Shown: positions 1 to 25,685 of the stretch, piece by piece
How the letters are laid out: each line of letters opens with the position of its first letter
Position numbering within the stretch: position 1 is the stretch's first letter
Assembly: GCA_963205185.1 (NCBI GenBank)
Contig: CAUJHZ010000018.1
Location: forward strand, 123,408 to 187,407
From: Planctomycetota bacterium
GTDB taxonomy: Bacteria; Planctomycetota; Phycisphaerae; Phycisphaerales; UBA5793
DNA length: 64,000 nucleotides
Direction of reading: 5' to 3'
Program-made: the position numbers and the translations under genes
The notes under the pieces: generated by a model
Databases searched by the model: none
Told to the model about the DNA's origin: nothing
Seen by the model: only the letters and a program-made list of their open reading frames with translations

Positions 1-684
1 GTGCTCGATGATCGCCGCCGGCCGGACTACGACGACGGTTCGCTGACCGAGAACACGCGCGTGACCTATCCGGTGGAGTTCATCCCCAACGCGCAACTCC
101 CGTCGATGTGCGGCCACCCCAAGAACGTGATCTTCCTGACTGCCGATGCGTTCGGCGTCCTGCCGCCGGTGTCGAAACTGACGCGCGAGCAGGCGATGTA
201 TTACTTCGTCAACGGATACACGTCGAAACTGGCGGGGACGGAAGCGGGAGTGACCGAGCCGCAGCCGAACTTCAGCCCGTGCTTCGGCGGGCCGTTCCTG
301 CCGCGCCCGCCAAAGGTGTACGCGGACATGCTCGCGGAGCGCATCGACACGCACGGCACTTCGGTGTGGCTGCTCAACACGGGCTGGTCGGGCGGGCCGT
401 ATGGCATCGGCAGCCGCTTCAAGCTCGCCTATACGCGCGCGATGGTTTCCTCGATCCTCGACGGGACGCTGAGCATCGGGCAGTTCGCGCCCGACAAGGT
501 GTTCGGCCTGGCGATTCCCGAGTCCGTCAAGGGCGTGCCCAATGACGTCCTGCACCCGCGCAGCACGTGGAAAGACAAGGCGGCCTACGACGCCAAGGCG
601 CTTGAACTGGCTCGTCGGTTCCGCGAGAACGACGCGAACTACGACCTGCCAACCGAAGTGAGGGCGGCAGGTCCGAGAGCCTGA
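1..684 (+). CDS. pckA: Phosphoenolpyruvate carboxykinase (ATP), C-terminal part; 5' end lies outside the window
   Basis: ORF is open to the window edge. Translation carries conserved ATP-PEPCK C-terminal blocks ([45 protein letters not shown]). Confidence 0.93.
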
Positions 685-793
685 CGCGATCGCCGGAAGA
701 GCGCCAAGACCGAGGAGGCTCGGCCCGAAGCGCCCAGATTCTCTCTTTCGCAGACGATTCGACGGAATAGCGAAGTTTTCATTCAGGTTAGAC

Positions 794-822
794 TTGTGCC
801 GAAGGGCAATGCGCTGTATTCT
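794..822 (+). promoter_or_regulatory. Candidate sigma70-type promoter of peptidase paralog 1
   Basis: TTGTGC (794-799), 17-nt spacer, TATTCT (817-822). The -10 element ends 108 nt before the ATG at 930, the same offset as in paralog 2. Pattern match only. Confidence 0.35.
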
Positions 823-929
823 GCGCACATGTTTGCGTGGGGTCGCTCGCAGTGGGCGGGTGATCGGCCGACGCTCGATCCGCATTCCGGCGATCGACAG
901 TTCTGAAAACCAGTAGATGGGAGTGAATC

Positions 930-3446
930 ATGGGGACCAAGGTAGTATGGATGCGGGCGCGTTTTCTTTCCGTTGGCCTGCTCCTGCCGCTCGCCGGCGC
1001 CTTCGGCTGGGCTGCAGACGGCGTCGAAACGACGATCGGTGATCAGCGTGTGGCGGCGATAGCCATCGAAGTTCCCGGGTCCGAGGCGGTTGTTCGACTC
1101 TGGGACGAGATCGACGAGTCGGGGAGTCGCACGCCGTTCTATTCCATCAGCCTCGATGGCAAGGCCGAGAACCTGCGCCGTCCGGTCGCGCCGAATATCC
1201 GCCTGCTCTACGGCTCCTTTGACCCGCTCGTCGCCGAGCCGCAGGTGCCCGAAGCGCTTCGTGCGGCGCCCGACAGCACCCTCTACCTGGTTCAGTTTCA
1301 GACGCAGATGATCGACGCGTACCGCGCGGCCATGGCCGACGCGGGCGCATCGCTGCTCAAGTTCGTGGCCGACCAGTCCTTCGTCGTGGAGATGCCTGGC
1401 GAAGTGGCGGAGGCGGTCAAGGAGATGCCGTTTGTCCGATGGGTCGGGGCGATGCACCCGGCATACAAGACGGACCCGGCCCTGCTCGCGGATCTCTTTC
1501 CGCCCGACTATGCGCACGCAGGCGGTGCTGCCGGAGATCAGGATGGTCAGGACGGAGCGGGAGTGCTCGGTGTCGAAGCGGGCCAGGCGGACGGCGTCGA
1601 ATACAGCATCATGATGACGCGGCGCGGCCCCGTGCCGCAGAACGCCGTCGCGCAGCGCATCGCCGCGATGGGCGGCGTCGTGCACCAGCAGATTCCCGAG
1701 GGCTTTCGCATCCTCGCCACGCTGACGCCGAGCCAGGTCGCCTCGGTGCTTCGCATGGACGAAGTGCTCTTCATGGATGTCCCTGGCGAGAAGGGTCTGG
1801 ACATGGACATCGCCCGCGAGATCGGCGGCGCAAACATGGTCCGCGACACGCTCGGCTTCACCGGCCAGGGTGTGCGCTGTGAAGTCATGGATGACGGCCA
1901 GCGGAGCAGCCACCAGGATTTCCAGGATCCGCCCACACTCTGGCACGGGTCTTCCGGAAGCGGCAGCCACGGCACATCGACCTCGGGAATCGTCTACGGA
2001 TCAGGCCGCGGCAACGCGCAGGCGACGGGCATGCTTCCCGACGCCGAGGCCAAGATCATGGCGCTGTGGAGCCCTTCGCCGAATCGCTATGTCCACACTC
2101 AACGGCTGGTGGATCCGAACGGCCCGTACCGAGCCGTGTTCCAGAGCAATTCCTGGGGCGACGCCCGCACCCGGTTGTACACGACCGTCTCTGCCGAGAT
2201 GGATGATCTCCTTTTCGAGAACGACATTCTGATCTGCCAGTCGCAGAGCAACGCGGGCAACCAGGATTCCCGCCCGCAGGCGTGGGCGAAGAACATCGTT
2301 TCCGTCGGCGGCGTGTACCACCGCAACACGCTCACCAAGGACGACGACGACTGGGGCGGCGGCGGGAGCATCGGCCCGGCGGCGGACGGCCGCATCAAGC
2401 CCGATCTCACGCACTTCTACGACAACATCTTCACGGTCTCGTCGAGTTGCGATACGTGCTACACCTCGTCGTTCGGCGGTACGAGCGGCGCCACGCCGAT
2501 CACGGCCGGGCACTTCGGCCTCATGTTCCAGATGTGGCATGAAGGAGTGTTCCCGGGGTTCGGCGGCGGCAACACGGTATTCGAAGACCGGCCGGCAATG
2601 GCGACCGCCAAGGCGCTCATGATCAACACCGCCATGCAGTATGAATTCAGCGGCACGAATCATGACCATTCGCGCGTCAAGCAGGGATGGGGCATGGCGG
2701 ACCTGTTCTACCTGTACGATCACGCCAATCGCATGCTCATCGTCAACCAGGATGTGCAGTTGCAGGAAACGCAGTCGCAGAGTTACCAGGTCGATGTGAG
2801 TCCCGGCTCGCCGGCGCTGAAGGTGACCATGGTCTTCCCCGACCCGATGGGCAATCCCGCGGCACAGCAGGCGCGCATCAACGACCTCTCGCTAAAGGTC
2901 ACCGCGCCCGACAACACCGAGTACTGGGGCAACAACAACATGCTCGGCAATATGTTCACCTCCCCGGGCGGAAGCGCCAACACCGTTGACACGGTCGAGA
3001 ACGTCTTCGTCGAATTGCCCATGGCCGGCACGTGGACGATCGAAGTGATCGCCTCCGAGATCAACGAAGACGGCTACCTCCCGACGCCGCAGGTTGATGC
3101 GACGTACGCCCTCGTCGCCTCGGGCATCGGCGAGATCCCGATGCGGCTGCAACTGTCGCGCTGGGTGGCGGGCGTGCAGGGCGACGCCGAGGTCTTCGCC
3201 GCGACGCCGGGTGAAGTGGTCGCGTTCCTGTACAGCGTCGGCGGCACCGGAAGCACCTACATCCCGCAACTGGACGTGACGGTGGACCTCGCCAACCCGG
3301 CTCTGGCTGGCACGCGCACGGCCGACCAGAACGGCTATGCACTGCTGCGCAAGCGCATCCCGAATGGAACACAGGGGCGGCACGTCTGGGTGCAGGCGGC
3401 TGAATTCCAGCGCAAGTCCAATGTCGTTGAGCAGGACATCGAATGA
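930..3446 (+). CDS. Secreted S8 (subtilisin/kexin-like) serine peptidase with P-domain-like region and C-terminal module, paralog 1
   Basis: 838-aa ORF with ATG preceded by GGGAG and a signal-peptide-like N-terminus. Catalytic motifs EVMDDG (Asp), GSHGTSTSG (His), FGGTSGATP (Ser). Kexin P-domain-like block INDLSLKVTAPDNTEYWGNN...GTWTIEVIASE. Confidence 0.9.
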   Translation: MGTKVVWMRARFLSVGLLLPLAGAFGWAADGVETTIGDQRVAAIAIEVPGSEAVVRLWDEIDESGSRTPFYSISLDGKAENLRRPVAPNIRLLYGSFDPLVAEPQVPEALRAAPDSTLYLVQFQTQMIDAYRAAMADAGASLLKFVADQSFVVEMPGEVAEAVKEMPFVRWVGAMHPAYKTDPALLADLFPPDYAHAGGAAGDQDGQDGAGVLGVEAGQADGVEYSIMMTRRGPVPQNAVAQRIAAMGGVVHQQIPEGFRILATLTPSQVASVLRMDEVLFMDVPGEKGLDMDIAREIGGANMVRDTLGFTGQGVRCEVMDDGQRSSHQDFQDPPTLWHGSSGSGSHGTSTSGIVYGSGRGNAQATGMLPDAEAKIMALWSPSPNRYVHTQRLVDPNGPYRAVFQSNSWGDARTRLYTTVSAEMDDLLFENDILICQSQSNAGNQDSRPQAWAKNIVSVGGVYHRNTLTKDDDDWGGGGSIGPAADGRIKPDLTHFYDNIFTVSSSCDTCYTSSFGGTSGATPITAGHFGLMFQMWHEGVFPGFGGGNTVFEDRPAMATAKALMINTAMQYEFSGTNHDHSRVKQGWGMADLFYLYDHANRMLIVNQDVQLQETQSQSYQVDVSPGSPALKVTMVFPDPMGNPAAQQARINDLSLKVTAPDNTEYWGNNNMLGNMFTSPGGSANTVDTVENVFVELPMAGTWTIEVIASEINEDGYLPTPQVDATYALVASGIGEIPMRLQLSRWVAGVQGDAEVFAATPGEVVAFLYSVGGTGSTYIPQLDVTVDLANPALAGTRTADQNGYALLRKRIPNGTQGRHVWVQAAEFQRKSNVVEQDIE
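3141..3443 (+). other. Recurrent C-terminal domain copy 1 (Cys-free type)
   Basis: Last 101 aa, MRLQLSRW...VVAFLYS...VDL...ADQNGYA...VWVQA...KSNVVEQDIE. Aligns with seven other C-termini in this window. Confidence 0.6.
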
Positions 3447-3472
3447 GCCAGCGCGATTGATCGATGCTCCAA

Positions 3473-3503
3473 CCCCCGCGGGCCTGCTTCCGCGGGGGTT
3501 TTT
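3473..3503 (+). terminator. Rho-independent terminator after peptidase paralog 1
   Basis: Perfect 9-bp stem CCCCCGCGG (3473-3481) / CCGCGGGGG (3490-3498), 8-nt loop, then TTTTT (3499-3503). Lies 27 nt after the stop codon. Confidence 0.75.
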
Positions 3504-3609
3504 CATTGGTCTCCGGTGACCGTGGCCGGCAACGGGGGGGCGCTCGGGCGACTGGAGCCTCGCCGCCGCTCCAATCCGAGCGATAAAACTGAGATTCGAT
3601 GGAATCGAG

Positions 3610-3638
3610 TTGCGTCCCCGATGGTTTTCCGGTATCTT
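3610..3638 (+). promoter_or_regulatory. Candidate promoter of peptidase paralog 2
   Basis: TTGCGT (3610-3615), 17-nt spacer, TATCTT (3633-3638). The -10 element ends 108 nt before the ATG at 3746, the same offset as in paralog 1. Confidence 0.35.
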
Positions 3639-3745
3639 GGAACGCATGGATCGGCTCTCGATCCGGCCAGGCGAGGGGGACGGCGTGAGGGCGTCGAGCG
3701 CGTGACCGTCGCGATGGCGAAATCATCACTTTCTGGAGATCTGAA

Positions 3746-6277
3746 ATGGGTACGAGGATCACGTGGACGACCAGCCGCCTGCTGTCAGTGGGGCTTCTGA
3801 TGCCGCTCGCATGCGGCTTTGGCTTTGCGGCCGATACAGTGGAACGGGCGGTGCAGTGCGGGCAGGTGCATTCGCTCACGGTGCCCGGCTCGGACGTGGT
3901 GATCAACCTGTGGGACGAAGTGGGGGAGGACGGCCAGGTCGTGCCGACCTATTCGATCAGCCTCGACGGGTGCCGCATCGCCACCCAGCAGGCCCTTCGC
4001 CCGACAGTGCGGCTCAAGTACGCATCTTTCGACCCGCTGGCGTTTGAGCCCGAGGTGCCCCAGGCGCTGCGGGCCGACGCCGATAACCAACTTTACATCG
4101 TGCAGTTCCAGACGCAGATGATCGACGCGTATCGCACGGCGATGGCTGACGCAGGCGCTTGCCTGCTCAAGTTCGTCGCGGATCAGTCGTTCGTCGTCGA
4201 GATGGAAGGCGAAGCGGCGGACGCGGTGAAGGAGATGCCGTTTGTCCGCTGGGTCGGCGCGCTGCACCCGGCGTATAAGCTCGATCCCGTGCTCATCGGT
4301 GAGTTGTTCCCGGCTGACTCGGGCCGGGCGGCCGCGGGCGCGGACGCCGGCGATGAGGGCCGTGACGCAGCAGCCGTGCTCGGAGCCGACGTCGGCCAGG
4401 GCGGCCATGGCGCCGTCGAATACAGCATCATGATGACCCGACGCGGCCCCGTGCCGCAGGCCGCGGTCGCGAATCGAATCGCGGCCATCGGTGGCGTGGT
4501 CAACCAGACCATCCCGCAGGGCTTCCGCATCCGCGCCACGCTCAATGCTGAGCAACTCGCGCAGGTGCTTCGCATGAACGAAGTGCTCTACGTCGATGAA
4601 CAGGGCGTTCAGGAAGACGACATGGACATCGCCCGCCAGATCGGCGGCGGCACGTTCCTCGAGTCCACGCTGGGATTCACCGGCCAAGGCGTGCGGGCCG
4701 AAGTGATGGACGGCGGCGTCCGCGCCACGCACCAGCAGTTCGAAGGCCAGGTCATCGTCCACTCGCAGAACACCGGCGACGCCAGCCACGGCACGTCCAC
4801 CTTTGGCATCGTGTTCGCGTCGGGCACCGGCAACGCCCAGGCCACCGGCATGATCCCCGACGCCGACGGCAAGATCTTCTGCGACTACGACCTCGTGCTC
4901 AATCAGAGTCAGAATCGCTACGGCCTCACGGCGGAACTCGTCGATCCAAACGGGCCGTATCGGGCCGTCTTCCAGAGCAATTCGTGGGGCAACAACCGCA
5001 CGCGCTCGTACACCACGATTTCCGCCGAGATGGATGACATCTCGTTCATCAACGACCTGATCATCTGCCAGTCACAGAGCAACGCTGGCAATCAGGACTC
5101 GCGCCCGCAGGCGTGGGCGAAGAACATCGTTTCGGTCGGCGGGGTGTATCACCGCAATACGCTGACCAAGGCAGATGACTCCTGGGGCCGCGGCGGCAGC
5201 ACGGGTCCGGCGGCGGATGGCCGCATCAAGCCTGAACTGACGCATTTCTACGACCAGATCTTCACCACCAGCAGCAGCAGCGACACCAGTTACACCACGG
5301 GCTTCGGCGGGACCAGCGGCGCCACGCCCATCGTGGCCGGTCACTTCGGCCTGCTCTTCCAGATGTGGCACGAAGAGATCTTCCCCGGCTTTGGCGGCGG
5401 CGCCGACGTCTTTGACAGCCGGCCGGCCATGGCCACCGCCAAGGCGCTGATGGTCAACTGCGCCGTGCCCTACAGCGGCGGAGATTTCGCTCGCTCGAAT
5501 CAGGGCTGGGGCATGCCGGATCTGACTTATCTCTACAACAATCGCGACACGATGCTGATCGTGGATCAGGCGGACGTGCTGCAGCACCTGCAAAGCGCGC
5601 AGTATGAAGTCACGGTCGGGCAGGGCGGCGGGCCGCTGCGCGTTACGATGTGCTACAGCGACCTCATGGGCAATCCCGCCGGACCGGTCGCCCGCATCAA
5701 CGACCTGTCGCTCAAGGTCACCGCGCCCGACAACACCGTGTACTGGGGCAACAACGGCCTCGGCAGCAGCAACTGGTCCACTTCGGGCGGCAATGCGAAC
5801 ACGGTCGATACAGTCGAGAACGTGCTGATCGAGGCGCCGGCTGCGGGTAACTGGACCATCGAAGTGATCGCATCCGAGATCAACGAAGACGCCTATCTCG
5901 ACACGCCGCAGGTCGATGCCGCCTTCGCCCTGGTGGCGACGGGGATTGACGGCTTCAGCGGCGGGATGCGCATCGCGACGAGCGGCACGTGCCCCGGCCA
6001 GGTTGAGGTGTCCTGGTCCGACGCCCCGCAGAACGTCACGCTGGGACTCATCTTCGCCGCGAACACCGGCAACATGGTCATCCCCGGCGGCATCTGCTCG
6101 GGCACCACGCTCGGCCTCGGGTCGCAGCAGATCCAGCTCGTGCAGACGACCAACAGCGGCAGCGGCAACGGCTCGATTTCGGGCAACGTCGGCCAGAACT
6201 CGGTCTGCAACGGCTACCTGCAGATGATTGAGACCAGCGCCTGTGCGACGAGCAACGTCGTCCGCGTGCGTCCATAA
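3746..6277 (+). CDS. Secreted S8 (subtilisin/kexin-like) serine peptidase with P-domain-like region and Cys-rich C-terminal module, paralog 2
   Basis: 843-aa ORF with signal peptide. Motifs EVMDGG, ASHGTSTFG, FGGTSGATP. P-domain-like INDLSLKVTAPDNTVYWGNN...GNWTIEVIASE. Confidence 0.9.
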   Translation: MGTRITWTTSRLLSVGLLMPLACGFGFAADTVERAVQCGQVHSLTVPGSDVVINLWDEVGEDGQVVPTYSISLDGCRIATQQALRPTVRLKYASFDPLAFEPEVPQALRADADNQLYIVQFQTQMIDAYRTAMADAGACLLKFVADQSFVVEMEGEAADAVKEMPFVRWVGALHPAYKLDPVLIGELFPADSGRAAAGADAGDEGRDAAAVLGADVGQGGHGAVEYSIMMTRRGPVPQAAVANRIAAIGGVVNQTIPQGFRIRATLNAEQLAQVLRMNEVLYVDEQGVQEDDMDIARQIGGGTFLESTLGFTGQGVRAEVMDGGVRATHQQFEGQVIVHSQNTGDASHGTSTFGIVFASGTGNAQATGMIPDADGKIFCDYDLVLNQSQNRYGLTAELVDPNGPYRAVFQSNSWGNNRTRSYTTISAEMDDISFINDLIICQSQSNAGNQDSRPQAWAKNIVSVGGVYHRNTLTKADDSWGRGGSTGPAADGRIKPELTHFYDQIFTTSSSSDTSYTTGFGGTSGATPIVAGHFGLLFQMWHEEIFPGFGGGADVFDSRPAMATAKALMVNCAVPYSGGDFARSNQGWGMPDLTYLYNNRDTMLIVDQADVLQHLQSAQYEVTVGQGGGPLRVTMCYSDLMGNPAGPVARINDLSLKVTAPDNTVYWGNNGLGSSNWSTSGGNANTVDTVENVLIEAPAAGNWTIEVIASEINEDAYLDTPQVDAAFALVATGIDGFSGGMRIATSGTCPGQVEVSWSDAPQNVTLGLIFAANTGNMVIPGGICSGTTLGLGSQQIQLVQTTNSGSGNGSISGNVGQNSVCNGYLQMIETSACATSNVVRVRP
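5966..6274 (+). other. Recurrent C-terminal domain copy 2 (4-Cys type)
   Basis: Last 103 aa, MRIATSGTCPGQ...GLIFAANTG...GGICSGTTLGLG...VCNGYLQMIETSACATSNVVRVRP. Confidence 0.6.
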
Positions 6278-6324
6278 CTCCGCATCGAGCCGTCCGGTGC
6301 GGCGACAATTCGCTCACATTTCCT

Positions 6325-6358
6325 GCGGTGCCCGGTTGTTCCGGGCGCCGCATTTTTT
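6325..6358 (+). terminator. Rho-independent terminator after peptidase paralog 2
   Basis: Stem GCGGTGCCCGG (6325-6335) / CCGGGCGCCGC (6341-6351), 11 bp with one G-U pair. Loop TTGTT, then ATTTTTT. Confidence 0.7.
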
Positions 6359-6379
6359 GCGCTCGTCACGGGTGAGGCC

Positions 6380-6419
6380 AAAAAGAATGCCCGACGATCA
6401 GCAGAGCCGAACGCCGGGC
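6380..6419 (-). terminator. Candidate terminator of the polyprenyl synthase gene
   Basis: On the minus strand: GCCCGGCG / CGTCGGGC stem (one mismatch) with a 15-nt loop, followed by ATTCTTTTT. Confidence 0.4.
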
Positions 6420-6547
6420 CTCGTGGGGGTCAGAAGAGAGTTCGTCAGAGTCATATCTCACAACCGCCGCCGGTCGGGACGTATTCCAAATCCGGAGCGA
6501 GTCTCTCCTGTTTTTTTGCGGGCTCAGTGGCCGCCTTCGCCCTGCCG

Positions 6548-7567
6548 TCAGGACGTGCGGGAGATGACCGCCAGCGCCAGGTCGTCGAGCAGTTGCCGGG
6601 CGGGCGACTCGGGGGCGGCGCTCAATTGCCCGCGAGCCTCTTCGACCAGTCCCGCGGCGACGCGGTGGGCGGAATCGACCGCCCGACTGGCCAGCAGCAG
6701 CGAGCGCACCCGCGCGGTCCAGTCGCCCTCGCGAGCCTCCGCGAGCGCTTCGAGCATGGCGAGTCGATCGTCCGGGGCGGCGGCGTCGAAGAAGTGGATC
6801 ATTGGCAGGGTGAGTTTGCCCTTCTCGAGGTCGCGGCCGAGCGATTTTCCGACGATGCGCTCTTCCCCTATGAGATCGAGCAGGTCATCCTGGATCTGAA
6901 AGGCCACGCCCAGCCGGCTGCCATAGAGCGCCAGCGCCTCGGACAGAGTCGCGTCGGCGCCGGCCTCCTCGGCGCCGAGCCGGCAGCACAGGCTGATGAG
7001 CGAAGCGGTCTTGCGCTCGACGATGGCGAAGTAGGTCGCCTCGTCGATCGACCAGTCGTCGCGGTGGTGGACCTGAAGCAACTCGCCGGAACAGAGTTCG
7101 TTCGTCGTTTCGCCGATGCGGCGACTGATTTCGGGCCGGTCCAGCGTCGAGCAGAGGTGAAAAGCGTTGGAGATGAGATAATCGCCAAGCAGAACGGCCA
7201 TCTCGTTGCCGCGCAGGTGGTTGACGGTCGCGGCGCTGCGGCGCATCTGCGAGTCGTCGAGCACATCGTCGTGCACGAGCGTCGCCATGTGGATAATTTC
7301 GCTCACTGCGGCGAGGACGCGCACGGTGTGCCGCGGCACGAGGTGGCCCGCCGAGGCTTCGCTGCCGCCGGCCAGGCCGCAGAGCAGGGTCAGGGTCGGG
7401 CGCAGCATCTTGCCCTGATAACGGGCGACGTGCCGGCAAAGTTCATTGACTGCTGGCAGGTCGCTGGCCAGTTGCCTACGGATGATCTCGTTGACGGCCT
7501 GCAGTTCGCCCGAGAGGAATTCGTGAATGGGTCGGTACCGCTGGGTGTGCTCGATCAATCCCGGCAT
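6548..7567 (-). CDS. Polyprenyl diphosphate synthase (trans-isoprenyl, IspB-like)
   Basis: Two Asp-rich motifs, LVHDDVLDD and FQIQDDLLD. GGAGG lies 7 nt upstream of the ATG at 7567 (alternative ATG at 7615). The ORF-track extension to 8311 overlaps the next gene and has no family similarity. Confidence 0.88.
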   Translation of the reverse strand: MPGLIEHTQRYRPIHEFLSGELQAVNEIIRRQLASDLPAVNELCRHVARYQGKMLRPTLTLLCGLAGGSEASAGHLVPRHTVRVLAAVSEIIHMATLVHDDVLDDSQMRRSAATVNHLRGNEMAVLLGDYLISNAFHLCSTLDRPEISRRIGETTNELCSGELLQVHHRDDWSIDEATYFAIVERKTASLISLCCRLGAEEAGADATLSEALALYGSRLGVAFQIQDDLLDLIGEERIVGKSLGRDLEKGKLTLPMIHFFDAAAPDDRLAMLEALAEAREGDWTARVRSLLLASRAVDSAHRVAAGLVEEARGQLSAAPESPARQLLDDLALAVISRTS

Positions 7568-7864
7568 CCGGAAGCCTCCACGGCGGGAGGCCCGCCGACC
7601 ATCCCCTGACGCCATGATAGCCTCTGAGTGAGGGTTACCAGCCGTTGAGACGTCCGAAGCGGGCGGCGGGGCTGCGAAACTGGGTAATCGGCTTAGAAGA
7701 ATGGGCGGGCGGCGTCCACTTTTAAGGGCGAAAATGCGGAATACGCGCGCCGGTCGGCCGGTTTGGTGTATGGTTACAGGGGCTTTTTCTACAACGCCAC
7801 CAGGCCCGTTTGACGGCGGGTGGAAGTGGGCGGTCCGGATTCTCAAAAAGGAGTGTTTCTCGTG

Positions 7865-9439
7865 ATGACCAAGATGAGGATGAGCAGTTACGTGATCGGG
7901 GCCATCGCGGCGTGTGGCGCCGTGGTGTCGTCTGCCGTTGCCAGCGACAATCGTACCGGCGGCGAGGCGCAAGCCGTGGAGTTTGTGGAGCGACCGGGCT
8001 CGCTCGAATTCAGCGGCGCAATGATTGCACGGCCGGTTCAGAACGACGCCGGCAAGAACGCCGCCGCCCGCAACCTGATTCTGAACAACTTCGTGGTCAA
8101 CAAGTACATCGACCTCAACGACGAGTACGTGTTCCAACTCCCCGAAGGCATCACAGAGAACCAGGCGGCCCGCACGCTGATGGCCACGGGCAACTTCGAA
8201 TACATCCAGCCTGACTGGATCTGCTACCCGCAACTCAATCCCAACGACCCGAGTCGCGGCAGCCAGTGGCACCACACCAAGATGGAGAGCTACGCGGGCT
8301 GGGACGTGCACACCGGTAACTCATCCACGCGCGTGGGCATCTGCGACACCGGCCTGCGAACGGCCCACGAAGAGTTCGCGCAGCATCGCGCCGACGGCTG
8401 GAATGCCGTCCGCAATCAGTGGGAAAGCCAGGGCGGCAACGTCCAGGACATCAACGGCCACGGCACGCACACCAGCGGCTGCGCCGCCGCCAACGGCAAC
8501 AATTCGCGCGGCGGCCTGGGAGTGGGTTGGAGCCTCGGCCATCGAATTCTCCGCGTCAGCGAATCCAGCAACGGAGGCGCCAACTTCTCGACGCTCACCT
8601 CCGCCGCCATCAAGGCCGCGCAGAGCGGCGACAAGTGCTCGAGCGTGAGCTACAGCGGCGCAGACAGCGCTTCGGTCCGCACGACCGGCACAACGGTCAA
8701 GAACCTCGGCGGTCTGCTCTTCTGGGCGGCCGGCAACGAGAGTCGCAACATGCCCAGCCCGAACCGCGACTCCGATGACGTGATCATCGTCGGCGCCACC
8801 ACGAGCAATGACGTTCGCGCTTCGTTCTCGAACTATGGCGTCTACGTCGATCTGTTCGCGCCCGGCGACAACATCTTCTCGACCTGGAACAGCCACAACA
8901 GCAGCTATGCCATTCTCAGCGGCACCTCCATGGCCTGCCCCATCGCGGCCGGCGTGGGCGCCATGATCTTCTCGAACAACCCGGGCATTACGCCCGATCA
9001 GGTCGAAGAACTGCTCAAGAACAGCTGCACCGACATCGGCGCCACCGGCGTCGATAGCATCTACGGCTACGGCCGCGTGAACCTCAAGAACGCGATGAGC
9101 GGCATCGGCGGTCCTCTCACTTTGGACATCAGCCCCATCCCGCTCAACGGCGGCGGCCGCGTCACCTTCAATCTCACCAACGTCCAGCCGAGCACGGACT
9201 GCGCGGTCTATTACAGCATCTCGGGCCTGGGACAGACGTTCGTATCTGAACTCAACGTCACTCTCGGCATCGCCAACCCGATCCGCGCCGGCGGCATCAA
9301 GACCAGCGACAGCAACGGCAACGCGAACTGGAGCAACCTGCCGGTTCCCACCGTCAACCGTCGCTTCTACGTCTGGTTCCAGGCGGCGGAGCGCAACGGT
9401 CGCGTTTCGGACATCATTGACACCTGGGTCGATCCCTGA
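7865..9439 (+). CDS. Secreted S8 subtilisin-like serine peptidase 3 with C-terminal module
   Basis: AGGAG at 7849-7853, then GTG 7862 / ATG 7865. Signal peptide MRMSSYVIGAIAACGAVVSSAVA. Catalytic motifs GICDTG, NGHGTHTSG, SGTSMACP. Confidence 0.9.
   Translation: MTKMRMSSYVIGAIAACGAVVSSAVASDNRTGGEAQAVEFVERPGSLEFSGAMIARPVQNDAGKNAAARNLILNNFVVNKYIDLNDEYVFQLPEGITENQAARTLMATGNFEYIQPDWICYPQLNPNDPSRGSQWHHTKMESYAGWDVHTGNSSTRVGICDTGLRTAHEEFAQHRADGWNAVRNQWESQGGNVQDINGHGTHTSGCAAANGNNSRGGLGVGWSLGHRILRVSESSNGGANFSTLTSAAIKAAQSGDKCSSVSYSGADSASVRTTGTTVKNLGGLLFWAAGNESRNMPSPNRDSDDVIIVGATTSNDVRASFSNYGVYVDLFAPGDNIFSTWNSHNSSYAILSGTSMACPIAAGVGAMIFSNNPGITPDQVEELLKNSCTDIGATGVDSIYGYGRVNLKNAMSGIGGPLTLDISPIPLNGGGRVTFNLTNVQPSTDCAVYYSISGLGQTFVSELNVTLGIANPIRAGGIKTSDSNGNANWSNLPVPTVNRRFYVWFQAAERNGRVSDIIDTWVDP
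9116..9436 (+). other. Recurrent C-terminal domain copy 3
   Basis: Last 107 aa, LTLDISPIPL...CAVYYSISG...VTLGI...SDSNGNA...YVWFQAAE... Confidence 0.55.
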
Positions 9440-13393: not shown

Positions 13394-15688
13394 TCAGTTG
13401 GGCGCCTGGACGACGTTGCTGGTTTCGCAGTTGGGCACCTGGACGAGCTGGAAGTAGCCGCCGCACGCGCCGTTGGGCAGTGTGGCGTTGAAGTTGCCCG
13501 CGCCGGCGCCGGAGTTGAACTGCCGGGCGATCTGCAGCTGGTTGGCGCCCAGGCCGAGCATGGTGCCGGCGCACGGCCCGCCGGACACGACGAACGAGCC
13601 GGTGTTGCGGGCGAAGACGAGTGCGAGGCTGACATTCGGATCGGCGTTGGTCCAGCCGAAGAGGCCACCACCCTGGTCGCGGCAGGTGCCCGTGAGCGTG
13701 AGGGTGAGGCCGCCGCCCGCGCCGCAGTCCACGGAGATCAGTTTGAACGCGTCGATGCCGGCTTCGGTCACCGAGTTGTTGGGATTGTCCGATGAACTGA
13801 AGCGGAAGCGCATCTGGCTGGTGAGCGGGAGATAGTCGGTGATGGTCAGCGTCTCGGTGCGCCATCCCGGCTCGTGGCCGAGGCTGCGCATGACGGTCCA
13901 GTTGCTGCCGCCGTTGTTGGACACTTCGGTAACGAGGAAATCATCGCCGTCGTCGTTGTAGAACCAGCGGTCGTAGACGAGCAGGACGCTGGACTCGCCG
14001 CTGAGATCGAAGAGAGGCGAGGTGAGGGTCGTCGGCCCGCCGTCGAGATCCTGGTTGTTGCCCAGGCCGGTGACCCAGCAGCTGCCCGAGCCGTCAGAGT
14101 CGGTCGTCGGATCGCCGCGACCGCCATTGCCGGCCGGCACGCCGCGCGCCCAGGCGCCGTCGGTGACGCTCTGGTTGACCACCGTCCAGCCGTTGTTGGT
14201 TTCGAAGTTGTCGCTGACGAGCGTGTTGAGCGCGTTGGCGCTGAAAGCCGTGTAGGTTTCGGTAGGCGCGCCCGTGGGATCGTTGACGACCTGACCGCGC
14301 GTGGTTTCAGCGCTGACGTAGAACTGCACCATGCTGCCGCAGGGCGAGGCGGGGAACGTGGCCTGATACGAGTTGGGGCCAAGGATGCCCATGGGGATGT
14401 CCACCCAGCCGCTGCCGTCGTTGAAGTGCAGTACGCCAGTGTCAGGCCGCGGGTCCGAGCCGCGGCTCGAGACGTCCACGCGCATCGTGGTGCCGCCACT
14501 GGGCCGGATCATCTCGGGCACGCCATCGGGATACGTGAAGGTCAGGCTGGCCTGCGAGGCGGTGACGTCGACGATGAACAGCCCGCGGGTGATGTCGCTG
14601 ATGATGACTGTGCCGCTGGGGAAGTAGGGGTACGTGCTCCAGGCGCCGTCGAACCCGGCGCCGTCGTCGCCCGGATATGTGTCGAACCAGCCGGTCTGCA
14701 CGACGTCGAGCGGGTCGGTGGCGTCGAAGATGCGCAGGCCACTGCGGTAATTGGCTTCAAAGACGAAGTTGCCGTTCACGTAGAGATTGTGATCGATCGC
14801 CGGCCGGCCCGAAGTGAACGTCGTCACGAGCGTGGGGTTGGTGATATCGCTCACATCAAAGACGCGCGTGAGCGTGGTGTTCGTATAGCCGTTCTGCTCG
14901 TCGAGTTCATCGTTGAGGAAGAAGTAGTTCCGATCTTCGCTGAGCCAGCCCTGGTGGCAGTAGTTCAGGCCGGGGTAGATGTTGCGACCGACGCGGAACA
15001 TGTTGGACTTGTCGGTGACATCCACAATGTCAAACGCGGTCTGGCCGTTGGAGCAGTAAGCGATCTGCCGGCCGGCGTACGGGCCCGAGTCGAACGTGAC
15101 GACCTGTACGTCGTGGCAGTAGGGGCCGCTGAACGTCCCCGCAAGAACGGGGTTGGATGGATCCGCGAGATCGAAGACGACCAGACTGCCGCTGTTGATG
15201 TTGGCGCCGCAGAGATAGAGGAAACCGCTCACCTCGTCCACATGGACATTGTGAGTGCGTGAGAGGCCGTTGTTGGTCAGGCTGCGCACCAGCGTGACGT
15301 TGCCGTTGTCCACGTCGGCGAGGCTGATGACCTGGATGCCGCCACCCTCCTCGTTGCTGACATAGCAGTGGTCGCGATAGACCTTGACGTCACCCCAGAG
15401 GCTGCCGGTGTGAGGGATCTCGGCGACCAGCACGGGGTTGACCGGGTCGGTGATCTCGACGACGGCCAGAGCCGCGCGCAGGCCCATGAGGGCATACTCG
15501 CGTCCCGAAGGCGAGACGTAGCCCCAGCAGTCGTTCCCTGACGAAGGATTGCTCGGGAAAGAAGATAAGGGCATGAACTTGAGCAGCGAGACGTTCTGCG
15601 AGTCAAACTGGGCAAGCGCGGGAGTTCCCGCGATCGCGGCAGCCACCCCGAGCACCGCCACGACATGGCGAACAAACGACCTGAACAT
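13394..15688 (-). CDS. Secreted LVIVD-repeat / choice-of-anchor-B-like beta-propeller protein with MAM-like domain and Cys-rich C-terminal module
   Basis: GGAGG lies 6 nt upstream of ATG 15688. Signal peptide ...AGTPALAQ. N-terminal block NDCWGYVSPSGREYALMG...VVEITDPVNPVLV is typical of LVIVD/choice-of-anchor B. Central MAM-like block (SDNFE...GW...DAFKLISVDC). Confidence 0.85.
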   Translation of the reverse strand: MFRSFVRHVVAVLGVAAAIAGTPALAQFDSQNVSLLKFMPLSSFPSNPSSGNDCWGYVSPSGREYALMGLRAALAVVEITDPVNPVLVAEIPHTGSLWGDVKVYRDHCYVSNEEGGGIQVISLADVDNGNVTLVRSLTNNGLSRTHNVHVDEVSGFLYLCGANINSGSLVVFDLADPSNPVLAGTFSGPYCHDVQVVTFDSGPYAGRQIAYCSNGQTAFDIVDVTDKSNMFRVGRNIYPGLNYCHQGWLSEDRNYFFLNDELDEQNGYTNTTLTRVFDVSDITNPTLVTTFTSGRPAIDHNLYVNGNFVFEANYRSGLRIFDATDPLDVVQTGWFDTYPGDDGAGFDGAWSTYPYFPSGTVIISDITRGLFIVDVTASQASLTFTYPDGVPEMIRPSGGTTMRVDVSSRGSDPRPDTGVLHFNDGSGWVDIPMGILGPNSYQATFPASPCGSMVQFYVSAETTRGQVVNDPTGAPTETYTAFSANALNTLVSDNFETNNGWTVVNQSVTDGAWARGVPAGNGGRGDPTTDSDGSGSCWVTGLGNNQDLDGGPTTLTSPLFDLSGESSVLLVYDRWFYNDDGDDFLVTEVSNNGGSNWTVMRSLGHEPGWRTETLTITDYLPLTSQMRFRFSSSDNPNNSVTEAGIDAFKLISVDCGAGGGLTLTLTGTCRDQGGGLFGWTNADPNVSLALVFARNTGSFVVSGGPCAGTMLGLGANQLQIARQFNSGAGAGNFNATLPNGACGGYFQLVQVPNCETSNVVQAPN
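13397..13708 (-). other. Recurrent C-terminal domain copy 4 (4-Cys type)
   Basis: Last 104 aa, LTLTLTGTCRDQ...ALVFARNTG...GGPCAGTMLGLG...ACGGYFQLVQVPNCETSNVVQAPN. Confidence 0.6.
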
Positions 15689-15849
15689 GCTGATCCTCCG
15701 AGTCAATGAGGCGCCCATCTTGTGAGGCTGGCGGGATGAACGATCCGCCGGCCCCGCCACGCGTGGGTCGGCCGGCGTCCGCTTCCAAGTTCAACCACGC
15801 CACGAAAAGTAGAACCGGGCCAGGTCCAAATACATTCCCAACAAAGGCC

Positions 15850-16641
15850 CTACGGCAGAATAGCCGTTGAAATCGTATTGGATTTCACGGAATCCGCTCC
15901 GTCGACGCCGCGCCGAATGACCGCCTGAAGGACGAGTTCGCGCGAGGGGGCGTTGGCGGGGATCGTCACCGTCATCGCGGCGTGACCCTGTTGGTTGGAC
16001 ACCGCACTTCCGATGACGTTGACCGGCGTGAGAATGTCGAGCGTCATGCCGCCGAGGTTGGGAATCGAGGGTCCGGCGCCCAGGCCGCTCATGCTGTAGA
16101 GGAAGTAGACGCGCTCGTTGGCTTCGGCGTGGAGGAGGTCAAAGGTGGCCCGCTGGCCGCGCGCCAGGGCCGTGGTGCTCAGCCGGGGGACGACCGTGCT
16201 CTGGCTGCGAATCTCGCCGGCCTCGAACTGCACGGTGTGGACGTTCACATACGCGCCTTCACTGAGGATGTCATCCTCGTACATCTCGTCGATGAGGATC
16301 CCCGTCGCAACGCGGCGGAGCCCATTGCCGTCGGGCATGAACATGTGGCCGTGCCCGAGGTGCGCGATCATGTCGCCGTAGAAGCCTTCCCGGCCCTGAT
16401 GGATGTGAGCGTAGAGCAGATTCTCGTGCATGAAACCTTCGATGTAGAGATCGATGTCGAGCAGGTTGGTCACATCATCGTATTTCATGATGCAATGGCC
16501 GGTGCCCTGGCTGCCGGTGGGCGGGTTGTGCTGATCGCCGGTCAGATAGGTGTCGAAGTACCAGACATCGGCGCTCGCCGCCGCCGTGCACTTCGCCGCG
16601 CCGAGCGCGGCCACCGTCAACATCTTCATCACGCCTTTCAT
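15850..16641 (-). CDS. Secreted CHRD-domain protein with C-terminal module
   Basis: GAGGAG lies 6 nt upstream of ATG 16641. Signal peptide present. CHRD-type block GTGHCIMKYD...LYAHIHQGREGFYG. Confidence 0.8.
   Translation of the reverse strand: MKGVMKMLTVAALGAAKCTAAASADVWYFDTYLTGDQHNPPTGSQGTGHCIMKYDDVTNLLDIDLYIEGFMHENLLYAHIHQGREGFYGDMIAHLGHGHMFMPDGNGLRRVATGILIDEMYEDDILSEGAYVNVHTVQFEAGEIRSQSTVVPRLSTTALARGQRATFDLLHAEANERVYFLYSMSGLGAGPSIPNLGGMTLDILTPVNVIGSAVSNQQGHAAMTVTIPANAPSRELVLQAVIRRGVDGADSVKSNTISTAILP
15853..16182 (-). other. Recurrent C-terminal domain copy 5 (Cys-free type)
   Basis: Last 110 aa, LSTTALARGQRATFDL...RVYFLYSMSG...LDIL...SNQQGHA...LVLQAV...KSNTISTAILP. Confidence 0.55.
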
Positions 16642-16726
16642 TGCCAACTCCTCTTGAGCCTTGCTCAACTCTGCTTGACTGAATTGCAACTCGCCACTAT
16701 CGACCGCGCTCGCGCGGCTTGAATCG

Positions 16727-18091
16727 TCAGAAGAAAGTCCAGATCAGAATGCTGCTCAACTCGCACGATCCAGCCTCGATCGCCTGGAAGAGCACGCCGC
16801 GATTGCGCGCGGCACGCGGCACCATGACGTCGAACAGGGCGTGCCCGGTCTCATCCGCGCGGATGCTCCGCATCAGCGTGGGAGAGCGGATGCCGAAGTT
16901 CACGCCCGAGCAGCCGGGAACGGGCGTCGTGCCGTACTGGAAGCCGTAGATCACGTGCACCATCGCCAACGGCAAGGCGCCGGCCACGTCGAAGGTGTTG
17001 ATTTCTCCCGCTCGCCCCGGGATCGGATTGGCCAGGCCGAGTTTGGGAACCAGAAGGAAGGCGTGCGTCTGGCCCGCGGTTGTCCGGCCGGTGCCGCAGA
17101 TGTGACCCGAATCGCTGATGCCCGTGGCGGTGCTGAGCGTGTCCCAGCCTGAAAGCGGCGGCAGCAGGGTGTTGATGTTCTGAATCGTCCGGCCCGGTTT
17201 CCAGAGAACCGCCTGATACTCACCTGCGGCCGGCAGGAAGGCCTCGCCCACTGCCTCGCGCAGGATGTTGACAGAGAAAGCGCGGGCGTCTCCGCCGACG
17301 GGAAAGGCGCCCAGATCGGTCATGACGTTGCTTTCCCACATGAACGGGTGCACGACTTCGTCGCCCGTGTCGCTGAAGCCCACGACCACGCCATTGCGAT
17401 TGCTGGAAGTGGCCTCGGCGTGCAGGCCACCGAGCGTGCCGATCTCGTGGATCTGATCGTTCGACCAGTACACGGCAAGGCGATTGCCCTCGCCATCTTC
17501 GGACCAGCCGGTGATCAGTCCGGAGTGGTCGATGTGCAGCGCGGCGCTGGCGGCGTGGCCCGGCAGGGCGCCGAGGTTGGTCATCACGTTGTCACGCCAG
17601 ACAAACGCCCGCCACTGGCCATCGCCGAGTTGCGATGTGCCGACGGCGTGGCGCGAGTCATTCATGCTGTAGGCGCGGGCGCTGTCGCCTCCCAGGGTGC
17701 CCAGGTCCATTCGCTGCCCGCTGCTCCAGGCAAAGGCCCTCGAATTCAGCCCGTCGGCGGTTTCCATCCGGCCAACGACCTGGCGCGTGATGTTGAGTCC
17801 GTGGGCGTAGCTCTCATCGAAGCCCGGCAGCAGGCCGAGATCGGTCATGTGGCCGTCCACCCAGAGAAAGGCGTGCCAGTCGCCGTTGGCGGTCTGGGCG
17901 GCGCCCACGACCTCGTTGTTCTTGTTGATGCCCAGAGCGATGCTCTTCTCGCCGCCCAGCGTGCCCAGGTCGAGCCCGATATAGCCCGGATCATGGCGAG
18001 CATCCGCAGGCGCGGCAGCAGCGACCAGCGCGGCCGATACGGCAACAACTCGAAACCGAAGCAGGTTTTTCAAAGAAGAAACTGTGCGCAT
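16727..18091 (-). CDS. Secreted HAF-family repeat protein with C-terminal module
   Basis: Signal peptide present. About seven repeats of the HAF type (LGTLGG..S.A.GIN..G.VVG...HAF.W). Confidence 0.8.
   Translation of the reverse strand: MRTVSSLKNLLRFRVVAVSAALVAAAAPADARHDPGYIGLDLGTLGGEKSIALGINKNNEVVGAAQTANGDWHAFLWVDGHMTDLGLLPGFDESYAHGLNITRQVVGRMETADGLNSRAFAWSSGQRMDLGTLGGDSARAYSMNDSRHAVGTSQLGDGQWRAFVWRDNVMTNLGALPGHAASAALHIDHSGLITGWSEDGEGNRLAVYWSNDQIHEIGTLGGLHAEATSSNRNGVVVGFSDTGDEVVHPFMWESNVMTDLGAFPVGGDARAFSVNILREAVGEAFLPAAGEYQAVLWKPGRTIQNINTLLPPLSGWDTLSTATGISDSGHICGTGRTTAGQTHAFLLVPKLGLANPIPGRAGEINTFDVAGALPLAMVHVIYGFQYGTTPVPGCSGVNFGIRSPTLMRSIRADETGHALFDVMVPRAARNRGVLFQAIEAGSCELSSILIWTFF
16730..17041 (-). 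other. Recurrent C-terminal domain copy 6 (2-Cys intermediate)
   Basis: Last 104 aa, LGLANPIPGRAGEINTFDV...HVIYGF...PGCSGVNFGI...ADETGHA...VLFQAIEAGSCELSS... Confidence 0.5.
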
Positions 18092-24679: not shown

Positions 24680-25504
24680 TCAACGGATTCCGTGAGTGAC
24701 GAGATAGTCCTTGGTCCGGGCCAGCGGCGCCCAGAGGCGCATGTCATCGAGACTCTCGAGCGAGCGCGACTCGCTGTGGTTGTCCATGAAAGTCACGCTG
24801 ACTTTACCGGCCCATCGCGCCGCGACGTAACCGACGTCGGCAGCCGAAACGGGGTCATCCAGATCCCACTCGCGCTCGGTGTAGAACGGCGAGTGAATTT
24901 CGAAGAAGCCGTCGCCGTTCACCGGGTCGAAGCGCTGGCCCTGCGCGCTGTACACCGAGTCGGTGAAGACGATCAGCCGATCGGGCGTGCGGCAGTCTTC
25001 GATGCGGCGGGCGTAGAACGGTCCCCAGCGGTGCGTCGCATTGGGATCGAACCCGTAATAGCGCGTGTCGCCGCCGAGGAATCGGCTGTTGAGCCCGAAG
25101 CGCGGAAAGACGCTGCGCTCGTAGGTGTCGGTGGCCGGCTCGCGGTCGTAGTAGAGACTCTTCCAGTTCCAGTCGAGGTACTTGATCAGCCGCCAGGGAT
25201 AGCGGTTCGAGACCGGCGGCGTGAGGCGGTGATGCTCGCGGTCGTAGGCCACGAACGAGTCGCCGTAACCCGGCAGGAGACTGCCCTTGAAGTCGTCGGC
25301 GTAGACGTAGTACGCCATCTGCAACTGCCGGATCGCGGCAATGCCATTGAGCGAGCGCGCCGCGGTGCGCGCGCGAGACAGGGCCGGCAGCAGCAGCCCG
25401 ATGAGCAGGGCGATGATGCTGATGACCACGAGCAGTTCGATGAGCGTGAAGCCGGAGGATCGGACGGCAGCGCGGGTGGGGGTGGACGGGTCGTGAGCAG
25501 CCAT
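24680..25504 (-). CDS. Prepilin-type N-terminal cleavage/methylation domain protein (planctomycete DUF1559-like)
   Basis: AAAGGAG lies 6 nt upstream of ATG 25504. Class III signal GFTLIELLVVISIIALLIGLLLPAL. Confidence 0.8.
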   Translation of the reverse strand: MAAHDPSTPTRAAVRSSGFTLIELLVVISIIALLIGLLLPALSRARTAARSLNGIAAIRQLQMAYYVYADDFKGSLLPGYGDSFVAYDREHHRLTPPVSNRYPWRLIKYLDWNWKSLYYDREPATDTYERSVFPRFGLNSRFLGGDTRYYGFDPNATHRWGPFYARRIEDCRTPDRLIVFTDSVYSAQGQRFDPVNGDGFFEIHSPFYTEREWDLDDPVSAADVGYVAARWAGKVSVTFMDNHSESRSLESLDDMRLWAPLARTKDYLVTHGIR

Positions 25505-25685
25505 GACGAACTCCTTTCGAGATCGCGGCTCCAATTGAGACCACATCGTACTCATCGGCAGGTCACGGGCAACGGGGTCAATTCCCTGATACGCCGATCC
25601 ACTTCTGTCTGATTCCATAACTATATGTGGGTAAAGCTGTTGCGCCGCTTTATCGGGGTGATTTCCCTGATCGGCGAGGACTCCA

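Follow-up and report, generated by a model that had tools for sequence, protein, structure and literature searches.

Probable replacement of a C-terminal module in one copy of a tandem pair of KP-43-type subtilase genes from a Phycisphaerales bacterium

Introduction

How two adjacent and closely similar peptidases came to end in different forms of a C-terminal module is the question raised by a locus in a Phycisphaerales bacterium (Planctomycetota; GenBank assembly GCA_963205185.1, contig CAUJHZ010000018.1, positions 123,408 to 187,407). The stretch analyzed, called the window throughout, is 64,000 nucleotides long with a G+C content of 64.8%, and the closest relatives of its proteins are found in metagenome-assembled genomes (MAGs) labelled Phycisphaerales or Phycisphaerae. 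Two genes, copy A and copy B, follow the 3′ end of a PEPCK gene head to tail on the plus strand and encode the secreted S8 peptidases p1 and p2 (Table 1). An earlier note on this DNA had proposed that the two proteins are collinear up to a sharp boundary and then carry different sub-types of an exchangeable module, that the duplication took in the leader, and that the copies are separately transcribed.

We present here a computational analysis of these proposals. The explanation that we favor as a whole, with a probability of about 0.78, combines an old tandem duplication, replacement of the module of copy B, gene conversion between the bodies, separate transcription units, and a putative sorting role for the module. 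Taken by itself, the replacement of the module is very probably real.

Results

The proteins p1 and p2 are 63% identical over 789 amino acids (aa) with 19 gap positions (BLASTP); collinearity stands, and the gaps rule out the strict residue-for-residue correspondence claimed earlier. Both proteins would consist of a signal peptide, a small beta domain, two I9-like propeptide domains, an S8 catalytic domain, a beta-barrel, a 6-residue linker, and a C-terminal beta-sandwich of ~100 aa. The Pfam model Peptidase_S8 (PF00082) scores 56.7 bits in p1 and 52.5 bits in p2 against a cut-off of 21.8, and the catalytic triad, assigned by motif (DxG, HGT, and GTSxA) to D321, H347, and S519 in p1 numbering, is invariant in 34 aligned homologues, p2 included. 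KP-43 (1WMD) matches p1 with E=2.3e-26, residues 293-709 aligning to positions 2-419 of the 434-residue chain, which takes in the catalytic domain and the beta-barrel. The region after the catalytic domain had been labelled a P-domain; P_proprotein (PF01483) stays below its cut-off of 21 in both copies (13.6 and 14.5 bits), and the region is, on its match to 1WMD, better described as a predicted KP-43-type C-terminal beta-barrel. A weak PPC match in p2 (PF04151, E=0.095) falls in this barrel, outside the module. The full-length AlphaFold model of p1 has a mean predicted local distance difference test score (pLDDT) of 69, with a poor catalytic core and a good remainder, and contains the small beta domain (44-97), two I9-like domains (118-174 and 223-283), both modelled with the beta-alpha-beta-beta-alpha-beta fold, the beta-barrel (603-731), and the beta-sandwich (738-836).

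The similarity of the two proteins ends in a single step. With a single change point fitted by maximum likelihood, the break falls behind p1 residue 733 (...ALVASGI; 2-lnL support interval, 730-739); the likelihood-ratio statistic is 76, whereas 500 column permutations reached at most 16.5. Identity drops from 0.67 before the break to 0.22 past it, and the lowest 100-aa window within the body still reaches 0.49, which argues against gradual divergence along the C terminus and for the discrete breakpoint proposed at this residue. Nucleotide identity falls at the break from 0.5-0.9 to ~0.4. In the secondary structure of the model the break is located in the 6-residue linker between the strands of the beta-barrel and those of the module, and matches to the hidden Markov model (HMM) of the module begin at aa 737 of p1 and aa 739 of p2. 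Because the break coincides with this inter-domain linker, the N-terminal edge of the module can be set at about G734-P737 of p1, in keeping with the earlier expectation. Past the break the p1 tail has no Cys and the p2 tail has four, exactly as had been noted.

The pair recurs in five other Phycisphaerales assemblies, from different projects, and the order of PEPCK, S8-A, S8-B, polyprenyl synthase (minus strand), and a small S8 peptidase is kept in five orthologous loci (L001-L005). A-type proteins are 69-80% identical to p1 and B-type proteins 57-62%, both being encoded on the same contigs. The Cys-free module is found in all members of the A clade (P0002-P0011 and the mosaic P0012, described below) and also in the outgroups P0021-P0024 and P0026-P0031, and the 4-Cys module in 7/7 B orthologues. 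A swap common to at least six genomes would be old and not peculiar to this one. The same loci bear on an artefact of assembly or binning, by which two peptidase genes would have been joined in a chimeric contig or a repeat collapsed. The window does come from a MAG, and tandem paralogues are prone to misassembly, but the same A-then-B order, module types, and flanking genes in five independent assemblies make such an error extremely improbable.

In a neighbor-joining tree of the body (catalytic domain plus beta-barrel), A and B are sisters with 90% bootstrap support and are nested among more distant peptidases, every one with the Cys-free module, which identifies the Cys-free form as the ancestral state. 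The module tree groups the A modules with other Cys-free modules and places the B modules in a 98% clade with those of a choice-of-anchor B protein, the 35609-36463 protein, and stand-alone proteins. Congruence of module and body phylogenies was the outcome that the earlier note took as contrary to an exchange; the two trees are incongruent, which favors one replacement event, at the root of the B lineage, over divergence in place. According to the latter alternative there was no swap, and the domain of copy B diverged fast from a Cys-free ancestor and converged on the 4-Cys form. Such a course is formally possible, since the sub-types are homologous over their whole length, and, to judge from the 2-Cys form, members of the family gain and lose Cys pairs. 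Convergence would, however, have to account for many non-Cys characters that B modules share with the 4-Cys modules of unrelated proteins (a 4-residue deletion after CPG, a W in strand 3, LGLG, and a GxGxG loop), and for the similarity of the p2 module to those modules (43% identity, and a phmmer match to the 13394-15760 protein at E=2e-23) as against p1 (~20% identity and no match). The 98% clade and the position of the identity step exactly at the domain linker also count against divergence in place, which we judge improbable. On the preferred reading, an old tandem duplication of a Sec-exported KP-43-type subtilase would have been followed by retention of the ancestral Cys-free module in copy A and, in copy B, by a recombination at or near the linker that put in its place the 4-Cys subtype, with two predicted disulfides, which terminates dozens of unrelated exported proteins in the same genomes.

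The body, too, is more than a diverged duplicate, since gene conversion has homogenized the first of its propeptide domains. Over aa ~103-180, p2 is 78-88% identical to p1 and only 51-64% identical to its own orthologues, and in a tree of the propeptide region p1 and p2 are joined at 91% bootstrap inside the A clade. Synonymous identity in the tract is only 0.57-0.74, so this event is not recent. Some related genomes have three tandem copies, and the third copy P0012 (positions 3204-5723 of L002, contig JBDIVQ010000001.1) is ~100% identical to its A-type neighbor P0008 over aa 72-225 (the two being joined at 88% in the propeptide-region tree), B-like over aa 235-440, in the catalytic core, and A-like from ~aa 570 to the end, with an A-like beta-barrel and the Cys-free module. 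Conversion and recombination among the tandem copies are thus recurrent. Since the duplication the bodies would have been kept collinear and in part re-homogenized by conversion, most clearly in the first propeptide domain; because non-orthologous tails cannot be converted, the boundary would have been kept sharp. The catalytic domain is least similar between the copies at p1 aa 305-345 and 372-386 (nucleotides ~1842-2090 in copy A and ~4658-4920 in copy B), where the segments are clade specific, and a B-specific insertion in this domain, IFCDYDLVLNQS, is present in all B orthologues. The clade-specific segments hint that substrate specificity may have diverged besides the tail.

The ~105-aa module terminates 8 different proteins in the window, all with signal-peptide-like N termini (8/8, read by inspection); three of these carriers are adjacent on the minus strand, and two others form a convergent pair. 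That the module is an exchangeable unit, as previously proposed, is borne out by this range of carriers together with the incongruent trees. Since the eight modules can be aligned from end to end, the Cys sub-types are versions of one domain; the isolated module was modelled as a nine-strand sandwich with a pLDDT of 95.7 (AlphaFold 2). A profile of the module, compared with 1.84 billion representatives, gave 3,978 clusters at E≤1e-3, of which 1,297 remain at E≤1e-10. Among the 149 best representatives, the module ends at most 8 aa from the C terminus in 147 and is present in 2-3 tandem copies in 23. When the four Cys columns were read in 176 domains, 137 had the second and fourth Cys (-C-C), 26 had all four (CCCC), 10 had none, and three were exceptions. 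The 2-Cys form is thus the commonest and bridges the Cys-free and 4-Cys sub-types, which are distinct forms, as described earlier, of one homologous domain and not separate kinds. The co-occurrence of Cys points to two probable disulfides, C2-C4 and C1-C3. A third Cys pattern (CMDLTV...GYCxxFGF...TCPxEC) was seen in the terminal module of the distant KP-43-like proteins P0025, P0033, P0035, and P0043; it suggests that the tail of KP-43-like peptidases may have been remodelled or exchanged repeatedly.

The strict 4-Cys form was searched with a degenerate DNA pattern across species-representative genomes. Matches lie in at least 101 genome stretches, confined to about ten Phycisphaerales-like MAGs, six of which have at least 10-21 matches per genome, and a stop codon follows 3-5 codons after SNV in 113/113 matches. 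The 90 complete open reading frames (ORFs) with a match represent 38 unrelated cargo clusters and 7 stand-alone forms that join a signal peptide to the module. Stand-alone proteins seen among the homologues (P0122-P0129 and P0142) are 126-145 aa long and have a signal peptide and one module, mostly 4-Cys; one 2-Cys stand-alone protein is labelled candidate division NC10. At least 17 strict 4-Cys matches come from a MAG labelled Vicinamibacteraceae bacterium PLA1 (WYBR01...; loci L006, L013, L015, and others), the acidobacterial label of which may be wrong, and the label of the MAG with the orthologous locus L001, ‘Planctomycetaceae PE_seawater30’, is similarly questionable.

Cargo matches among 91 representatives comprise HAF repeats (20), choice-of-anchor Q (10), FG-GAP, beta-helix, and PMP repeats, as well as S8, M23, M28, and reprolysin peptidases; the module is mostly found on non-peptidase cargo. 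Neither Pfam nor NCBIfam had a model for the module when searched with the 91 representatives, the window proteins, and 8 modules taken alone, and Pfam at E≤10 gave only chance matches to the isolated modules. A profile search found no sequence match for the module in the PDB, and Foldseek against the PDB returned only generic Ig-like neighbors (best neocarzinostatin, E=3.8e-3, TM 0.6). Profile searches of a 5.8-billion protein index returned only short proteins and did not inform taxonomy, and a literature search found no description of a C-terminal sorting domain in Phycisphaerae or Planctomycetota.

The copies would be transcribed as separate units, each having a conserved promoter-like element, an intrinsic terminator, and a leader of ~100-115 nucleotides (nt). 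Of 13 upstream regions from the window and its orthologues, 11 have the pattern TTGnnn-17-TATnYT and a twelfth has a variant of it, the chance expectation being ~0.004 per region as estimated from base composition. In the A type it reads TTGTRM-17-TATTCT in 6/6 regions (window counted); the copy B element is found in the window and in 4/5 orthologous B-type regions, the fifth having the variant TGGCGT...TATGTT. The hairpins downstream of the stop codons have the form of intrinsic (Rho-independent) terminators as predicted from sequence. That of copy A is kept in 7 inter-copy regions, with compensatory changes at 5 pairs, and that of copy B in 6 loci, with compensatory changes at 6 pairs. Separate transcription of the copies, which had been thought probable, is well supported comparatively by the conserved promoter-like element and the two covarying terminators.

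The leader is another matter. A 13-nt motif does stand upstream of each copy, as GATTCGACGGAAT in copy A and GATTCGATGGAAT in copy B, where the earlier note had placed it, and it is literally true that a -10-like hexamer ends 108 nt before each ATG (TATTCT at 822 and TATCTT at 3638). The shared 13-mer and the equal spacing could be taken to mean that the gene was duplicated together with its promoter and leader, and that a single factor co-regulates both copies. The two sites match at 12/13 positions and are the only exact matches in the 64-kb window, a GGAAT core recurs upstream of orthologues, both promoters have the form TTGnnn-17-TATnnT, and the leaders align with z=2.0. However, a shared 13-mer with at most one mismatch arose in 14/300 shuffles of the upstream region (~5%), and the motif stands 26 nt from the -35-like hexamer in A but 4-5 nt from it in B, a difference of 21 nt. 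Motif and hexamers apart, no alignment was obtained between the two upstream regions, and the z=2.0 of the leaders compares with z=5.9 for the opening 120 nt of coding sequence. Only half of the motif is conserved, and the leaders of orthologues vary from 106 to 122 nt and are unstructured and unconserved. We therefore do not follow the earlier claim that the duplication includes the leader, and duplication of the leader with shared control is an unlikely though not far-fetched reading. The equal spacing of 108 nt is probably a coincidence within the 106-122 nt over which the end of the -10 hexamer varies across the window and orthologous regions.

Allowing two mismatches, 5 matches to the motif were found against 3.2 expected, with no regulon-like enrichment within the window. 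The GATTCGAC half is not conserved among orthologous upstream regions; with the regions anchored on the promoter-like element, the conserved part consists only of the GGAAT core with an upstream ATT. The GGAATA half lies at -30 from the -35-like hexamer in 4/6 A-type upstream regions (window counted) and in 2 of the B type, the GGAAT core at -30 being that of the window, three A-type loci, and the B-type regions of L002 and L003. A core at -9 or -10 is found in the window and in the B-type regions of L001 and L005, both of which have AGATT-N5-7-GGAA(A)TC at the same position as the motif of copy B. The ATT/GGAAT element is a plausible cis-element. Apart from the Shine-Dalgarno region the leader sequences are unconserved, with their length range kept. 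The z-score of the minimum free energy is -0.24 for the leader of copy A and -0.06 for that of copy B, and it is near 0 in 11/12 leaders, on which ground a riboswitch or attenuator was dropped. An Rfam scan of positions 600-6600 at E≤1 found no leader match; a sub-threshold match to a togavirus frameshift element on the opposite strand was taken as chance.

Long ORFs lie antisense to or overlap the peptidase genes, for example, at 783-1970, 2892-3647, 3061-3906, and 3785-4789, all on the minus strand. They are not taken as genes, since their translations are low-complexity and rich in Arg, Ala, and Gly and such frames are to be expected at 65% G+C. Elsewhere in the window, a prepilin-type N-terminal motif, GFTLIELLVVISIIALL, was spotted by eye at 24680-25618 (minus strand). 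Pseudopilin-like proteins with a prepilin-type motif are abundant in planctomycetes.

Table 1. Coordinates of the peptidase genes, their predicted elements, and the other module carriers (position 1 is the first nucleotide of the window).
Feature	Position	Strand	Description
Promoter-upstream motif, copy A (GATTCGACGGAAT)	756..768	+	-35-like hexamer follows after 26 nt; candidate UP-like element or site of a regulator
Promoter-like element, copy A	794..822	+	TTGTGC, 17 nt, (TG)TATTCT
Predicted leader, copy A	823..929	+	107 nt, hexamer to ATG; ~100 nt from a transcription start ~7 nt downstream; GGGAG Shine-Dalgarno
Copy A (p1)	930..3446	+	838 aa; secreted KP-43-type S8 peptidase, Cys-free C-terminal module
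First I9-like propeptide domain, copy A	1236..1475	+	aa ~103-182; donor or partner of the conversion tract shared with copy B
Breakpoint/linker, copy A	3129..3140	+	aa G734-P737; last beta-barrel strand 724-731, first module strand 738-742
Cys-free module, copy A	3138..3443	+	aa 737-838; predicted beta-sandwich (AlphaFold 2 and family alignment)
Intrinsic terminator, copy A (predicted)	3471..3500	+	12-bp stem, then T-run
Promoter-upstream motif, copy B (GATTCGATGGAAT)	3593..3605	+	Near-palindromic; ends 4 nt before the -35-like hexamer
Promoter-like element, copy B	3610..3638	+	TTGCGT, 17 nt, TATCTT
Predicted leader, copy B	3639..3745	+	107 nt, hexamer to ATG; GGAG Shine-Dalgarno
Copy B (p2)	3746..6277	+	843 aa; secreted KP-43-type S8 peptidase, 4-Cys C-terminal module
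4-Cys module, copy B	5960..6274	+	aa ~739-843; HMM match, phmmer
Intrinsic terminator, copy B (predicted)	6324..6352	+	12-bp stem, then T-run; between convergent genes
Module carrier	7820-9439	+	Small S8 peptidase; Cys-free or 2-Cys
Module carrier	13394-15760	-	Choice-of-anchor B protein; 4-Cys
Module carrier	15850-16689	-	279-aa protein without NCBIfam match; Cys-free or 2-Cys
Module carrier	16727-18091	-	HAF-repeat protein; Cys-free or 2-Cys
Module carrier	33806-35563	+	Another S8 peptidase; Cys-free or 2-Cys
Module carrier	35609-36463	-	Unassigned 284-aa protein; 4-Cys

Discussion

The two peptidases have in common with KP-43 subtilases (Bacillus KSM-KP43 protease, 1WMD; SubHal, 5FAX) the catalytic domain with beta-barrel, the D/H/S triad, and an N-terminal propeptide, and they differ in having two I9-like propeptide domains, an extra N-terminal beta domain, and the added C-terminal module of ~100 aa. 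SpBcA-C of Bergeyella cardium are KP-43-type peptidases of Bacteroidota and type IX secretion system (T9SS) cargo, and their terminal domain is a T9SS C-terminal domain (CTD) (PMC11982257). The order of signal peptide, propeptide, S8(kp43), beta-sandwich, and a domain of ~100 aa at the extreme C terminus is alike (PMC11982257), but the module of the window matches no T9SS CTD model and its host is a Phycisphaerales planctomycete. T9SS CTDs (PMC4804311) resemble the module more widely, as Ig-like beta-sandwiches of similar size that are strictly C-terminal, serve diverse Sec-exported cargo, and are numerous per genome; the module, in contrast, has no sequence or close structural match to them and has disulfide sub-types, tandem forms, and stand-alone forms. 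Searches of Pfam and NCBIfam with the 8 window proteins, 8 modules in isolation, and the 91 representatives gave no match to Por_Secre_tail or the type B CTD. T9SS is described as limited to Bacteroidetes; homologues of the window proteins are labelled Phycisphaerales or Planctomycetota. The shared C-terminal beta-sandwich would be a functional resemblance only.

Like short sorting tags (PEP-CTERM, GlyGly-CTERM, MYXO-CTERM, and LPXTG), the module takes the C-terminal position on cargo of the choice-of-anchor B and Q, NxxGxxAF, HAF-repeat, and rhombotarget-like families, and dozens of copies occur per genome, as reported for MYXO-CTERM (PMC11980579). Such tags are ~20-35 aa long and tripartite, with a transmembrane helix and a basic tail, whereas the module is a folded domain of 100 aa that ends in a beta-strand and has no hydrophobic helix. 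The C termini ...SNVVEQDIE and ...SNVVRVRP lie within a predicted beta-strand, unlike the short motif-helix-basic tail, and no NCBIfam sorting-signal model matches the module carriers among the window proteins and the 91 representatives. With PPC (PF04151) and PKD domains the module shares its place as an accessory beta-sandwich at the C terminus of secreted peptidases; it differs in lacking a Pfam match and in its mostly non-peptidase cargo. The history of the pair resembles concerted evolution and domain shuffling, in which conversion makes paralogues within a genome closer than orthologues and a terminal domain is exchanged at a linker. The mechanism is ordinary; the distinctive feature is the nature of the exchanged unit, one subtype of a lineage-expanded terminal domain.

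For the module itself we tentatively propose a role in targeting exported cargo to the envelope or anchoring it there (‘sorting’), a proposal that we hold at somewhat less than even odds. Its terminal position is strict, all 8 window carriers have signal peptides, there are dozens of copies per genome, and the conserved disulfides imply folding outside the cytoplasm; the cargo is enriched in HAF repeats and in ‘choice-of-anchor’ families, which elsewhere carry interchangeable sorting signals. The T9SS CTD that related KP-43 peptidases of Bacteroidota have in the place of the module (PMC11982257) points the same way. A swap would then let two nearly identical peptidases differ in destination, partners, or redox-dependent stability. 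A narrower version, by analogy with the T9SS CTD, is speculative and on balance unlikely: Phycisphaerales-type planctomycetes might possess an undescribed pathway that sorts proteins to the envelope or anchors them there, with the module as its recognition or attachment domain and the Cys-free, 2-Cys, and 4-Cys forms specifying routes, partners, or redox niches. It is also quite possible that the swap is real and the module a generic accessory binding or adhesion domain (lectin-, PKD-, PPC-, or carbohydrate-binding module-like) that tethers secreted enzymes to substrate or cells, the sub-types differing in ligand or stability. The Ig-like beta-sandwich fold, the arrays of 2-3 modules, the stand-alone secreted copies, and the FG-GAP, dockerin, Ig, or CarboxypepD_reg domains in which other homologues of the peptidase end all suit such a domain. 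Ordinary binding modules are positionally more flexible, however, and the terminal position here is very strict, both in the best representatives and in the DNA matches; the cargo, moreover, is mostly of families defined by alternative C-terminal sorting signals.

Several observations weigh against the combined explanation of duplication, replacement, conversion, separate units, and sorting. All trees are neighbor-joining trees on short alignments, the B clade of the body tree has only 58% support, and the donor of the 4-Cys module is weakly placed (38% bootstrap). The 3′ junction of the mosaic P0012 lies near aa 560-585, at the border of catalytic domain and beta-barrel and away from the module linker, so the linker is not the unique point of recombination, and its candidacy as a unique hotspot was dropped. 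A scan with the sigma-70 consensus finds no promoter, because the hexamers match the Escherichia coli consensus at only 7/12 positions. The tandem and stand-alone forms of the module suit a domain for binding or adhesion no less than a secretion signal, the linker shows no conserved cleavage motif, and neither a candidate translocon nor a candidate processing enzyme was found.

The event, a case of domain shuffling in tandem paralogues, is nothing out of the ordinary, and the uncatalogued terminal domain is of greater interest. On its own the pair is a textbook case of duplication, conversion, and terminal-domain exchange that would not surprise a specialist; its value is that of a natural delimiter, which marks the N-terminal edge of the module within ~6 residues. 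The family so delimited comprises ~4,000 clusters at 50% identity in public data, with no Pfam, NCBIfam, or close PDB counterpart. If sorting or anchoring proves to be its role, the module would offer a way into the question of how proteins come to be positioned on the envelope of planctomycetes of this lineage, or outside it, and the A/B pair would be a natural swap experiment, in which nearly the same enzyme is sent to two destinations and the constructs for a swap are ready-made.

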